Made by a program: the position numbers and the translations under genes. Of a stretch of DNA of 64,000 bases, positions 35,380-63,892 are shown one piece after another. Position 1 is the first letter of the stretch; every line of letters starts with the position of its first letter. Source of the stretch: Mobula hypostoma (Eukaryota); assembly GCF_963921235.1 (NCBI RefSeq), contig NC_086097.1, positions 143,160,001 to 143,224,000 on the forward strand. Reading direction: 5' to 3'. Below the pieces are notes generated by a model. It was not told the DNA's origin. It did no database searches and saw only the letters and a program-made list of their open reading frames with translations.

Positions 35380-35820
35380 GGGGTAGAGTGACCGGTGGAG
35401 TGGGGGAATTAGAGGAATTGGAGGAGGTAGAGTGACCGGTGGAGTGGGGGAATTTGAGTGGGTAGAGTGACCGGTGGAGTGGGGGAATTAGAGGGGGAGG
35501 TAGAGTGACCGGTGGAATGAGGGAATTGGAAGGGGAGGTAGAGTGACCGGTGGAATGAGGGAATTGGAAGGGGAGGTAGAGTGACCGGTGGAATGGGGGA
35601 ATTGGAAGGGGAGGTAGAGTGACCGGTGGAATGGGGGAATTGGAAGGGGAGGTAGAGTGACCGGTGGAGTGGGGGAATTAGAGGGGGAAGTAGAGTGATC
35701 GGTGGAGTGAGGGAATTGGAAGGGGAGGTAGAGTGACCGGTGGAGTGGGGGAATTGGAAGGGGGTAGAGTGACTGGTGGAGTAGGAGGGGGGAGTGATGG
35801 GGGAGGGGGAGAGTGACCAG
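35380..35820 (+). repeat. G-rich 38-bp minisatellite (~11 units) at the start of CCDC12 intron 1
   Basis: Unit GAGGTAGAGTGACCGGTGGA(A/G)TGGGGGAATTGGAAGGG; GTGACCGG starts at 35543, 35581, 35619 and 35657 (period 38). Confidence 0.95.
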
Positions 35821-36720
35821 GGAATCAAGTGATTTTCCTTAAGCTTGCTCTGGGTCTCATTGTAACTTGGTTTCTCTTTCCATAGATGTGTCCTGATTTG
35901 CTGAGTATTTCCAGCATTTTCTGTTTACACTTATTACCTTTCCCAGTGTTCTTGGATAGAAATGATGAAGCTGAGGACAGTTAAGTATCAATCACATCAT
36001 CGTGCGAGACTGGAGTAAAGCATAACCCTGGCTAGTCAGGACATTGCTCTTTTGCCAGCTGAATTTTATGTCAACCCATCAGGTTTGCGATCATGTGAGT
36101 TTTATGTGTAAGCTGTTTTTAAAAAAAACTCTTAAATTCAGATTACCGTTGCTGCAATTTATGCTCACTTTCTTTGGAACTTTGGTAGAAAAGTGTAAGG
36201 AAAACCCCAGAAAAACAAAAAAATGCTGGAAAAACTCGGCACGCACGTCAAGCACCATCTGTAGAAAGAGACACAAAGTTGTCATGTTTGTTGAGCTTCC
36301 CAGCTCTTATACAACCTGGAAGGGCTGATTACTTGAAACTTGCATTCATTGTTAAGTTCTGTGGACTGTCCAGAGTCAGTTCAGAAAGTGATGCACTAAT
36401 CCTTGACCATGCATTAAGGTTTCATTGGAACAGTGTTAGATGCCAAAGCTATAGAAGTCTAAGTGAGAATGTGATGGCGAATTAATCCAGCAGGTAGCTG
36501 GGAAATCACGGTTCACTGTTTAATGCGTGGAGGTGTTTTGCAAAGCAGTCAACTGTCCTAAGAACAGGATCAGTCCTTCAGCCCATGATGTGCTGATTAC
36601 TCCTGATTAATATTGTTCTCTTTTGTGTACATTGATCAAATCCCTCCCTTCATATGCCTATTGAATGCTCCTATGCTATCTGGCAAAGCATTCCAGGCCC
36701 CCACCAATCAGTGTTTATAG

Positions 36721-41712: not shown

Positions 41713-42494
41713 GAAATGGTCCTGCTCTCTTCCTAATTACCCTCTTGCCCTTGAAATATGTGTATAATGCCTTGATTTTTTAAAAAAATCCTACTCTCCA
41801 GTAAATTTCATGACAATTTTAGCTCTCCTAATTCTCTTCTTTGGTTCCCTTTGGGCTCTTTTATAGTCCTCTAGCACCTTGATTCTAGCTTCCTGAACCT
41901 TGTGTATGCTTCCCCTTCCCTCTTGACTAAATTAACTGCCCTTCTCATCATCCAAGGTTCCTGTATCTTGCCAAACTTGACCTTCCCTCTTTCTGGAATG
42001 AATTGGTCTTAAACTCTGTGTAATTTGTCTTTAACCTCCACATGTCAGATATAGATTTGCTTGGAAACATCTTTTCCTAATTAATTCCCCCTAGCTCCCA
42101 TCTTATGCCCAAGTAATCGGCCCTGCCTTAATTTAACACTTCCTTGCAAGTTCCACTCTTATCCTTATTCATGGTTATCTTAAAGCTTCAGGAATTATGA
42201 TCACTGTTTCTCTAGTGTTGACCCACTAAAGGTCTGTCACCTGGCTTGTTCATTTCCCATTAAGAGGTCTAGTATACCCTCCCCTCTAGTTGGATTAACC
42301 ACTTACTGCTTCAAGAAACCTCTCGGACATGGCTAACAAATGCTATCCATTAAATCTTTTGCACTAAAGAGTTCTCAGTCCATGTTGGGAATGTTGAAAT
42401 CTCCTACTTTAATAACTTTGTTGGTTTTGCTCCTTTTCACAATCTGCCTGCGTATCTGCTCCTCAGTCTCTACGGCTATTTTGGGGTCTACAGT

Positions 42495-42957
42495 TGTTCG
42501 TCCATCGTTGACGTCGATGAGGACCTCGACACCATAATGATGGTGTCGAGACTAGCGCGTGATTTGGATTTAAGTGAGGGAGAGTTGCGCAGCGTCAGCC
42601 TCACTCTGTCTTCCCAATTCCCATCTGGATCCGGTGACAAGACAGAGTCTAGACGGCTGGAGATGGGACTAGGCACAGTGGATGACCAGGACGTCTTCTG
42701 TGTCTTGTCCTGCTCTACATGTTCCACGACGCTTGCAGAGACCGCCTTCTTGACCGTTGGACCTTCCATTGGTCTCGTCCACTCAATCCGCCGGAGTCTG
42801 GCTTCACATGCTGGGATAGACAACTCCCTATCTCACCGAGGGTTTGAGACCCGTCGGCTACCCTCACCTGGTTTAGCCGGCTTGTCAAAGCTGTTGCCCG
42901 GGGTGTGGCCGCTGTCGCATGCAAACAGCTACGGGGAGCCACAGGTGAGAGCTGAGA
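42495..42957 (-). mobile_element. Young ~460-bp non-autonomous retroelement (possibly Ingi/Vingi- or RTE-related) with a perfect 9-bp TSD
   Basis: GTCTACAGT at 42486-42494 and 42958-42966; CpG-rich relative to its flanks; 3' stem-loops; no credible ORF; superfamily assignment is inference. Confidence 0.85.
42861..42951 (-). ncRNA. HDV-like ribozyme fold (5' strand of P1 missing in this copy)
   Basis: P2 CUCACCUG/CAGGUGAG; P3 GGC/GCC; L3 starts UCCCCG; P1 3' strand ACACCCC; then GGGCAACA as in genomic HDV; P4 GCUU(UGAC)AAGC; J4/2 GGCUAA with the putative catalytic C at 42876. Confidence 0.65.
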
Positions 42958-43274
42958 GTCTACAGTATAAATCCATCAGACTGATGGCCCCTTTTCATAT
43001 TTTTGAGTTCTAACTATATAGACACAATTGACGAGCCCTCCATTTTGTTCCTCTGTGTGCAGCTGTAAATTGTCCCTGATGAATTGTGTACCCCTTCCCT
43101 CTCTTTTATCTCCTTCTCCTTCTGTTCTAAACATCGAAGTTTAAGTTAAACTGTCTCAATACTTCAAAGAGTTAGGAACTACAAAGGATTTGTATCGACA
43201 ATCATCTTTAATACTACAATGAAAATCAAGATTTTGAGGATGCGGCGCTGATTTTGTTCATTTATAGTTAATCA

Positions 43275-61666: not shown

Positions 61667-63892
61667 TATAACGTCTGTGCCCCCAACTGACTCCCGTTGC
61701 CTAGGGTGAATAGCCGTCAACCCCGACAAGCAGTGCAAATGCTCTGGTGCGGATACGGTGTGAGGCACCCAAATATCAGCCACGACACAAATACAGGTTT
61801 CCCCCGCCATCCAAAGGTAGAGCATTCCTATGAAATGGTTCGTAAGCTGGAATGTCGTAAAGCGAAGAAGCAATTACCATTTATTTATATGGGAAAAATT
61901 TGTGAGGGTTCGCAGACCCAAAAATAACCTACCAAATCATGCCAAATAACACACAAAACCTAAAGTAATAGTAACATATCGTAAAAGCAGGAATGATATG
62001 ATAAATACATAGCCTATATAAAGTAGAAATACTTCTCTACCTTCATTGCTGCACTGTTCTCCGTAGCGAAAATCTCATGCAAGGGCTCTCGGCAGAAACA
62101 CTCTCTCCAGTAACCTTTAAGCTATGAAGCCGCCAGATCATACCAAATAACACATAAAAATACACAGCCTATATAAAGTAGAAATAATGTATGTACAGTA
62201 GTATCGCTTACCGGAATTGGGAAGACAGTAATGAGCACACTGATGATGGTGCATTAGGCTGAGTCGTCGGAGGTTGGGGTGGTGCAGTGGCCCCCACCCT
62301 CCGGGCAGCGAACCGATACCGATCAGCGAAACATGCAGGGACACAGCGGTGGCTGGGACTCACCCAACACATCTTTAAGAAAAAAGTCGAAATAAACAAG
62401 CTAATTAATTACGTGCTGGGTGGCACCTAATTAATTACCTTGTTTACTTCAGCTTTTTTCTTAAAGATGTGCTGGGTGCGTCCCGGCTACCGCTGCATTC
62501 TCCGCGGCAATGTATTGGTCCGTGGCCCGGGGATTGGAGTGGTGGGACACTGGGGTGTCATCTCCTCGTCGATCAGGGCAGGCAGGTCATCTTCTTCTAT
62601 GTCTGCCTGACTCGATGTGGAAGGTCGAGGTTCGTCGTTTGCTGTGGCTGATTGGAAGGCTTGCTTGACTGCTTAGCTTCGTGCATTTTCTATCATACAG
62701 TTCTCTGTAAGCACTCAAACCATCCTGCAAATATGTCCTAAACCGACGTACCCTTTCAAAATCAAAGTCGTCCGTTTCTGCAGTCATTGCAGCGAAAATC
62801 TCACGCAGTTGCTTCACGTTCAGTTCCTGGACGACTTCACTTTCAGTCTGTTCACTACTGCATTCGGTTTCGATTATTATCCTTTCTTCTTCCAATTGCA
62901 TCAGCCCTTCATCTGTCAGTTCTTGGTCATGGGATGCCATAACCCCTTCAACATCATCTTCGTCAACTTCCACAAGCCAAACTCACTTTGTCCTTGCTTC
63001 GTTCACCACGATTGAAACACTTAATTATGTCTAGTTTTACGCTAAGTGTAACACCCTTACGAGCTCTTTTAGGCTTTCCCGATATCTTAGAACTCATCTT
63101 GCTAACGGCTGCTCACAGACACGTGTTTAAGCAATGCTGGCTAGAATGCAGTTCCGAATCTGGGGGAAGAGCGGCTGCTTGGGGCGCGAGCTGCTTTTTT
63201 TGTAACAATGAAAACACCTTCTGTTAGTGAAAACAGGTAACTAATGTAGGTCTTTCGTAACAGTGAGGTTTCGTAAAGCGAACGTTCGAAAACCAGGGGA
63301 CATCTGTATCAAACAATATACAAAGTGTGAGTAAAGAAATATACTTTATAGTAATTCTTGGTGATGGGTTCATAGAAACAACTAAAAGAAAAGGTGCCAC
63401 ATAAGTAAACTTAGCAGTCTTGTGCACATGATACTTCAATACGTTGGAGCTCATGCCTCCGATTCCATCCACAACGTCCTTCTGAGACTTCAGCCACCAC
63501 CTGAACCGCCGAGGCCCGGTATCTGCCGCCCTGAAACCGCTGTCTGTTCCCCACACATCCGTCCTCTCCACTCGCCTCCCGAAAAAGCCCGCGAGCCCCA
63601 GCTCGGCACACACATACAAGATAGCGTAACATAACTTCCACTGGTTAGTTCCTCCATTATCTATAACTATAACCCAAATATTTTAGCTACAGAGAACATT
63701 ACCTCATAGTTGCCATTACTAAGAAGCCATTTCATTATAACACTTCAGAGAAGCCATTTTATAATAAACAGTTAACAGTCTGGTTAATATTACTGAGAAC
63801 CCTACAATTATCAAACAAAACTATACACTGTTGGAGTGTTTTATTCGGCCCACCTTATCTATGAAAGAATTACCTGCTTAGGCTTGTACACC
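61667..63892. mobile_element. Possible decayed LTR-like element hosting the Tigger insertion
   Basis: CpG-rich non-coding sequence on both sides of the Tigger; clear termini and TSD not found. Confidence 0.3.
61794..63306 (-). mobile_element. Tc1/mariner Tigger-type non-autonomous DNA transposon
   Basis: TA|CAGGTTTCCCC...GGGGACATCTG|TA; subterminal TCGTAA repeats; acidic remnant EVDEDDVE.VMASHDQELTDE.LMQLEEE typical of Tigger transposase C-termini. Confidence 0.85.

Follow-up and report, generated by a model that had tools for sequence, protein, structure and literature searches.

A truncated copy of a short LINE-derived element in Mobula hypostoma whose intact heads are predicted HDV-like ribozymes with a hairpin in L3

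HDV-like ribozymes have been described at the exact 5′ end of several groups of non-LTR elements, namely RTE, R2, R4, Ingi/L1Tc, and LOA, where they are predicted to release the element from its co-transcript (PMC5786205, PMC6765202, PMC3774820), and the element considered here likewise carries such a fold at its very start. In these retrotransposon ribozymes P1.1, P3, and L3 together make up 15 conserved nucleotides (PMC3774820), whereas in the present locus L3 alone has 28. L3 is generally seen as a short and unvarying component of the HDV active site, so that searches capped at 7–8 nt would miss a form of it that holds a hairpin. Among the described ribozymes, drz-Agam-2 (Webb et al. 2016, PMC4908430) shares the nested double pseudoknot, a P1.2 with short linkers, and an extended P2 (12 bp there, 11 bp here), and its P1.2 and extended P2 accelerate cleavage. 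Short elements in which the two ends of a LINE are joined by an internal deletion and the ribozyme head is kept are also known, i.e., the R2 SIDEs (PMC3414825) and RTE-N/RTESINE, NARTc, and RIME (PMC5786205), and the present element is built in the same way.

The DNA analyzed, hereafter the window, is one stretch of 64,000 nucleotides of the Mobula hypostoma genome, and all the features of the element given below lie on its minus strand. Our main reading, to which we give a probability of roughly 0.68, is that the window holds a truncated and likely inactive copy of a short LINE-derived element, that the intact heads of this element are HDV-like and predicted to cut themselves at G1, and that the loop of the L3 hairpin likely pairs with a downstream hexamer. 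The element is of a known kind, and the structural variant of the HDV fold at its head is one for which no description was found in the literature searched.

The window copy spans 42493–42956, corresponds to nt 99–562 of an element here named family A, and has 9 differences from the family majority. It is flanked by a 9-bp target-site duplication, ACTGTAGAC, whose 5′ copy (42958–42966) is separated from the element by a single extra T (42957), and whose 3′ copy (42486–42494) shares the last AC of the tail. As the earlier note had claimed, the stretch from 42952 to 42860 reads in the order of the HDV double pseudoknot, namely P2, P3, a 28-nt L3, P3′, ACACCCC, GG, P4, J4/2, and P2′; of the finer details of that reading, P4 had to be revised and P2 proved longer. 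The 5′ strand (42942–42952) and 3′ strand (42860–42870) of P2 form an 8-bp core, or 11 bp with its extension, and the strands of P3 are GGC (42938–42940) and GCC (42907–42909). L3 (42937–42910) begins with the core UCCCCG (42932–42937), which we take to supply the equivalents of U20, C21–C22, and G25 in HDV numbering, and directly after the last of these, on the 3′ side of the loop, comes an inserted hairpin (42911–42929) with a stem of 5–6 bp. The hexamer GCAUGC in the loop of this hairpin (42917–42922) is the predicted 5′ strand of a third pseudoknot. The L3 core has the U/G signature as in PMC3386971, and in the antigenomic ribozyme the base after the G of this U-G pair is bulged and flexible (PMC3386971).

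Beyond P3 lie the 3′ strand of P1, ACACCCC (42900–42906), the GG of P1.1 (42898–42899), the P4 hairpin (42878–42893), and J4/2 (42871–42877), with the predicted catalytic C at 42876. The family form of P4 is GGCUU-CGAC-AAGCC with a closing C-G pair, from which the window copy departs by G>A at 42892, breaking one pair, and by C>T at 42887. Downstream of the core two more hairpins are predicted, P6 (42836–42857) and P7 (42813–42828), the latter ending one base before the hexamer GCAUGU (42806–42811), the predicted partner, or receptor, of the L3-hairpin loop; in element numbering the loop is nt 133–138 and the receptor nt 244–249. The copy then runs through an 11-bp hairpin at a deletion junction (42525–42550), whose left arm comes from the 5′ UTR of a parent LINE and whose right arm comes from its 3′ UTR, to a 3′ end derived from the 3′ UTR of the same LINE (42493–42535) with an AAC tail at the terminus. 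At the other end, the start at 42956 leaves out element nt 1–98, and with them J1/2 and the 5′ strand of P1 (nt 1–7), whose absence the earlier note had recognized. Since this strand is missing and the nearest upstream G run, at 42991–42988, would allow only 4 pairs, the window copy is probably inactive; a P1 of 4 nt is functional in one R2 ribozyme (PMC3774820). Apart from the element, the window contains an inverted repeat of 73 nt at 62344–62495 (88% complementary, 6-nt spacer) and a tandem array with a period of 38 nt at 35385–35839.

The order of stems alone is little proof of the fold, because a loose HDV descriptor matches random sequence freely, with 442 matches in 30 random 64-kb windows, 38 of them with P1, and at least 18 in the real window. 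A descriptor search had been suggested in the earlier note, and its strict form, written after the site was seen and asking for UCCNNG, a Watson-Crick P3 and 8-bp P2, GG, a P4 hairpin, and CNRA, had its sole match in the window at 42952–42860 and no match in any of 300 random windows. Plain folding is unremarkable (z = −0.76 for 97 nt of the window copy and −1.23 for the 198-nt head of copy L024), as is expected of a structure that is a pseudoknot. The Rfam HDV-type models gave no match, and this miss is not specific to the L3 insert, since the models also passed over L349 and L486, canonical heads from families D and F of the same genome.

Full-length family A elements are 562 nt long, are non-coding, and end in an AAC-repeat tail; they have no RT-like frame, the longest open frame being about 110 codons. 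A 511-nt query against the 3.5-Gb genome gave 3,486 first-look candidates, the best 40 of which are 96–100% identical over the same 464 nt. A 30-nt word across L3 and its hairpin has 1,001 exact matches in the genome, and its reversed control none; a looser core pattern has 1,695, and the copy number is put at a minimum of 1,001. Full-length copies open with GGGGUGU-AU-GGGGUGU, 98 nt upstream of the start of the window copy, and the GGGGUGU start that had been predicted for them is thus seen. The 5′ ends were sampled in 69 copies, made up of 29 top-scoring matches and 40 regions picked by genomic order among the matches of the looser pattern, for which two rows already sampled were skipped and two neighbors merged, and of which 3 turned out to be family E. 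Alignments start at nt 1–3 in 50 of the 69, at nt 8–10 in 6, and elsewhere in 13, and a flanking repeat of at least 7 bp is present in 47, in some by chance. A minority of copies (e.g., L003, L006, L013, and L024) start with GGGGUAU, which mismatches P1′ at pair 6 and equals the P1 strand of family F. One locus, L410 (G000:C1:21776100-21777560), has two family A cores on the same strand, 576 nt apart, likely a tandem insertion. A suspected GAAGCUG subfamily dissolved into 12 scattered mutants.

Among 54 loci from genome contigs there was no homologue, the viral contigs gave none in two scans, and a pattern scan of metagenomes gave at least two homologues among the 120 matched loci listed. One further locus, L120, fits the descriptor and was set aside as a chance match, as it lies within a bacterial-type ORF. 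The matches in sequencing runs are all in assembled contigs and the RNA labels of X15–X17 are guesses, so these matches say nothing on expression or 5′ ends; the sole raw-read run, X21, gave no reads.

The L3 hairpin, which had been noted as an unusual structural variant, is a fixed trait of family A and is common to its sister families, being present in five families of this genome and in two metagenome contigs. A search that excluded the L3 letters of family A gave 535 matches in which this hairpin accompanies UCCAAG; they were sorted into families B and C, and family E and the contigs L140 and L189 are further carriers. The core of family A stripped of its hairpin has no match in the genome. 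By their majorities, these heads share the nested double pseudoknot of P2, a 3-bp P3, a 2-bp P1.1, and P4, together with U20 and G25 in L3 and the catalytic C and A in J4/2, the L3 letters being partly fixed by the search patterns. An L3 of 7–8 nt is found in D and F (7 nt) and not in A, B1, B2, C, E, L140, and L189 (26–28 nt), and for this reason the hairpin-bearing heads are classed as an HDV-like variant, not as canonical HDV-like members. Family F (L475–L504), which accounts for most of 66 pattern matches, comprises a short element and a LINE and has an L3 of canonical length with the unusual letters UCCAAGC.

Covariation was assessed on 13 natural copies, with rows and structure picked by hand, a setting in which related sequences can beat shuffles of this kind. 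The named structure has 92% of its cells paired, and 13 pairs are changed on both sides, compared with 6.8 ± 1.8 after shuffling; these changes fall in P4 (3 of its 6 pairs), P6, P7, P1, and P1.2. Within P1, pair 5 goes from U-A to G-C in L189 (outer register, 6 of 7 pairs kept from the first base) and pair 6 from G-C to A-U in family F, whose P1 and P2 both covary against family A. The covariation that the earlier note looked for in P2, P3, and P4 is therefore present in part: P4, and with it P1, covaries among the hairpin families, P2 does so only when set against D and F, the two canonical families; no variation is seen in P3 or in the stem of the L3 hairpin, which is uninformative for or against either. 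The lone both-sided change in the hairpin stem, in L382, was obtained with a search in which G was excluded at that position.

The loop of the L3 hairpin, GCAUGC, is complementary to the GCAUGU that lies 59 nt beyond the P2 core, and in every one of the seven hairpin groups the receptor lies at a distance of 126–137 nt from P3. The majority letters of loop and receptor are GCAUGC/GCAUGU in A, B1, L140, and L189, where in L189 the helix extends to 9 bp, GCAUGC/GCAUGC in E, and GCACGC/GCGUGU in C. The change in family C is two-sided, with C in the loop of all 6 parsed copies and G in the receptor of 5 of them, in a family that differs from A at 39 of 268 sites. It is the only both-sided change in this helix and consists of CpG-type transitions on both sides, and this pair is broken in 3 of the 13 rows. 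When the 75 nt after P2 are shuffled, 5% (A) and 14% (C) of the shuffled sequences contain a complementary hexamer by chance. From these comparisons of sequence, the predicted third pseudoknot, i.e., the loop on its receptor, is moderately supported.

Family D adds a different view of the same pair. Its head is canonical, with a 7-nt L3, and is 78.5% like that of family F, and its LINE protein is 56–67% identical to that of A. The loop GCACGC (12 of 13 parsed loci, 15 examined) and the receptor GCGUGU (11 of 13) occur in it as well, with the loop on a different hairpin, 52 nt upstream of the receptor and outside the ribozyme; such a hairpin appears in 3.3% of shuffled sequences. Both parts are absent from family F. 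The sole C-type LINE copy, L337, is 36–50% identical to A, farther than D, and yet keeps the L3 hairpin, so the exchange of heads seems to have taken place in D. A profile built from the hairpin families detected no homology in the downstream hairpin region of D, whose hairpin may thus be convergent; the same profile gave no support to the notion that it is a decayed old ribozyme core. In three of the 15 D loci (L338, L350, and L354, in the last at 877–1008) an OTUD5-like coding stretch (PDB 3pfy, E = 2.5e-4) is fused at a CAG in P4, and intact D heads have a pyrimidine run and CAG at the fusion site, which looks like a host exon that was spliced onto the LINE and then amplified. Six further D loci (L339, L341, L352, and L355–L357) have a related GC-rich 5′ piece.

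An alternative that accepts the ribozyme as real would see the L3 hairpin as an insert tolerated at a flexible site and the hexamer match as a coincidence aided by parallel CpG decay. The single both-sided change, CpG-type on both sides, and the chance rates of 5–14% fit this view, and so do families D and F, which manage without an L3 insert; it has more difficulty with the one-sided changes that preserve pairing (in E and B2 a G-U becomes G-C, in L189 a C-G and an A-U are added), with the steady distance of the receptor in all seven groups, and with the recurrence of the pair in another context in D and the lack of both parts in F. We consider this explanation unlikely, and retain the pairing of loop and receptor as the preferred reading.

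Regarding the catalytic core, P1 has 7 of 7 Watson-Crick pairs in the majorities of families A and C, and both copies of GGGGUGU could form it perfectly in these two families; the outer P1 of family E has, by eye, apparently two mismatches and that of L189 one terminal mismatch. Among 37 sampled A copies, 11 are without full alignment over P1, and P1 is unbroken in 19 of the other 26; P1, P2, P3, P1.1, and the four signature bases are all intact in 11 of the 37. The inner GGGGUGU is predicted to pair with nt 92–101 and so to close a structured J1/2 of about 90–95 nt; this J1/2 domain, the second GGGGUGU in its stem, and the likely loop-receptor pairing are features beyond those in the earlier note. 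A fold in which P1 and the core strands are kept single-stranded has an energy of −79.3 kcal/mol (MFE −86.5) and contains P1.2, P2, P3, P4, and the L3 hairpin; P1 as a free duplex would add −11.8 kcal/mol.

The fold might instead be a dead relic, or be impaired by its insert, with the uniform 5′ ends set by an internal promoter or by an RT stop at a stable structure, either of which can also yield precise ends. Families B and C do deviate from the consensus, with UCCAAG in place of UCCNCG, and no published L3 insert was found in the text searched; however, 34 of the 37 sampled A copies have U118, G123, C179, and A182 (U118 and G123 being fixed by the search pattern), as do the majorities of the hairpin families, with a deletion in L140 that shortens the P4-J4/2 region, the first P1 base is where the 5′ ends concentrate, and P1 and P4 covary. 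These observations make a relic quite improbable, and HDV-type cleavage by the intact heads is likely, as predicted from their sequence.

Two other roles for the loop are very improbable. Dimerization of two element RNAs through the palindromic GCAUGC, comparable to a retroviral kissing loop or to the L3 of CPEB3, which dimerizes in crystals (bioRxiv 10.1101/2022.09.22.508989), has in its favor a self-duplex of −8.0 kcal/mol, near the −7.6 of loop and receptor, but the GCACGC loops of C and D are not palindromic (−2.7) and their receptors have changed in step. An off-switch, in which the receptor would invade the stem of the hairpin, over up to 9 bp, so that the core comes undone after co-transcriptional cleavage, could draw on a duplex that is extendable into the 5′ arm of the stem in A, B, E, and L189 and is used in the MFE folds of B1 and E, but an A-G mismatch interrupts the extension in C and L140 and the pairing in D involves no part of the ribozyme.

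Under the preferred reading, host transcription would read into an intact copy, whose head would fold and cut 5′ of G1. The outer GGGGUGU would serve as P1 and the inner copy would close the ~90-nt J1/2 domain, and this domain and the 11-bp P2 would between them hold P1 and P2 close, in the manner of drz-Agam-2. Cleavage at G1 would be Mg2+-dependent, with C179 as the general acid, and would free the element RNA from the read-through transcript; the protein of the parent LINE would then copy it from the shared 3′ end, early stops giving truncated copies like the one in the window. The hairpin would bud from the flexible position after G25 and leave the active site intact, and, once the receptor is transcribed, it would dock there as a third pseudoknot. 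Its main job may be to shape the cleaved 5′ UTR, whether for translation, for the binding of a protein, or to protect the end, and it may additionally brace the core; a main role in the cleaved RNA is more likely than one in catalysis, because in the sister LINE D the pair lies outside the ribozyme. In R2 templates, stable HDV folds act as a cap-like protection (PMC13708176), and a role resembling that of an IRES has also been suggested (PMC6765202).

The origin of the short element is apparent from a 4-kb APE-RT LINE of the same genome, which was reached through the continuation of contig L140 to LINE copies with a family A head, and which has in common with the element its first ~520 nt and its last ~45 nt. 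The LINE copy L358 is 96.5% identical to the family A head over 522 nt and continues into an endonuclease-RT frame, and the 3′ ends of L358–L362 are matched by the final ~45 nt of the short element. The parent has the domains RVT_1 and Exo_endo_phos and a C-terminal Cys2-His2 motif, in copies that are broken. It is 28% identical to a LINE bearing DUF6451 and matches a cluster named "craniofacial development protein 2-like", two labels that presumably mark RTE. Its single APE-RT ORF, short 3′ UTR, and short-repeat tail agree with the RTE feature list (PMC8501958), and we call it RTE-like, an assignment made from anatomy, not from an RT tree. With LINE ends shared, no ORF of its own, and target duplications, family A has the features of a bipartite non-autonomous LINE and is, judged by its sequence, an internal-deletion derivative of the RTE-like LINE; the AAC tail, the target duplications, and a parent with endonuclease and RT also support the ribozyme-headed non-autonomous retroelement that the earlier note had proposed. 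A tRNA-derived SINE was rejected, as ARAGORN found no genes on L029 and the head is the parent LINE's own 5′ end.

The first autonomous candidates (L031–L100, from DUF6451 matches and endonuclease relatives, L051 among them) have no DNA in common with family A and no descriptor match. The regions upstream of 40 further endonuclease matches and 23 earlier loci showed no family A head or receptor motif, and only family F emerged from them. L051 (2260–5313, minus strand) has a near-intact APE-RT frame of 1018 aa and a GAA tail, in DNA unrelated to family A with no HDV head found, and the L453 group (25 loci) is an RTE-like family whose majority starts with GGGGTGTATGGGGTG and in which no HDV core is visible by eye.

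At the deletion junction the two arms of the 11-bp hairpin, one from each UTR of the parent, suggest how the deletion may have arisen. In seven LINE copies of three families (L358–L364 and L337 among the loci used), the best duplex between the 5′ UTR and the 3′ end falls at the junction position of the 5′ UTR in five and elsewhere in two; its letters are unrelated between the three families, and its 3′ partner is the first bases of the 3′ UTR. By score the duplex is weak, with 6–108 of 200 shuffles as high for the five copies and 6–137 of 200 over all seven. That a conserved end-to-end pairing brought the deletion points together is a lead, and the 5′-3′ UTR complementarity offers a testable cause of the bipartite build common in RTE-derived short elements. 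A wider reading, which we offer tentatively, would make this a triple-pseudoknot HDV ribozyme, whose loop-receptor pair is a so far unrecognized, conserved RTE 5′-UTR module that outlasts ribozyme swaps and couples cleavage to protein loading or cap-free translation, while the 5′-3′ UTR pairing circularizes the LINE RNA and sets the birthplace of short bipartite elements.

A natural, high-copy L3-hairpin variant widens the HDV family and provides a new attachment place for a switch or contact. Moreover, one genome holds a comparison series, with the insert present (A, B, C, and E), absent (F), or matched by a hairpin outside the ribozyme (D), which makes roles of ribozyme heads beyond cutting directly testable for a retrotransposon.

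In the running text of the papers searched, no HDV-like ribozyme with an L3 hairpin or a third pseudoknot was found, and the available parts of PMC4035085, PMC4870747, PMC10879173, and PMC8501958 contain nothing on L3 inserts. The CPEB3 ribozyme (bioRxiv 10.1101/2022.09.22.508989) likewise engages L3 nucleotides in an extra base-pairing contact, but there a 7-nt L3 pairs between molecules and P1.1 is lost, whereas here the loop of a separate hairpin is predicted to pair within one molecule. Compared with the bipartite elements cited at the outset, as far as the available text on them goes, the junction here lies at an 11-bp complementarity of the parent's 5′ and 3′ UTR, and two further LINE families show a complementarity at the corresponding place, in different letters. 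Finally, in contrast to drz-Agam-2, in the accessible text of which inserts are mentioned only in J1/2 (PMC4908430), the heads described here combine an L3 of 26–28 nt that contains a hairpin with a predicted third pseudoknot and a doubled P1 strand.
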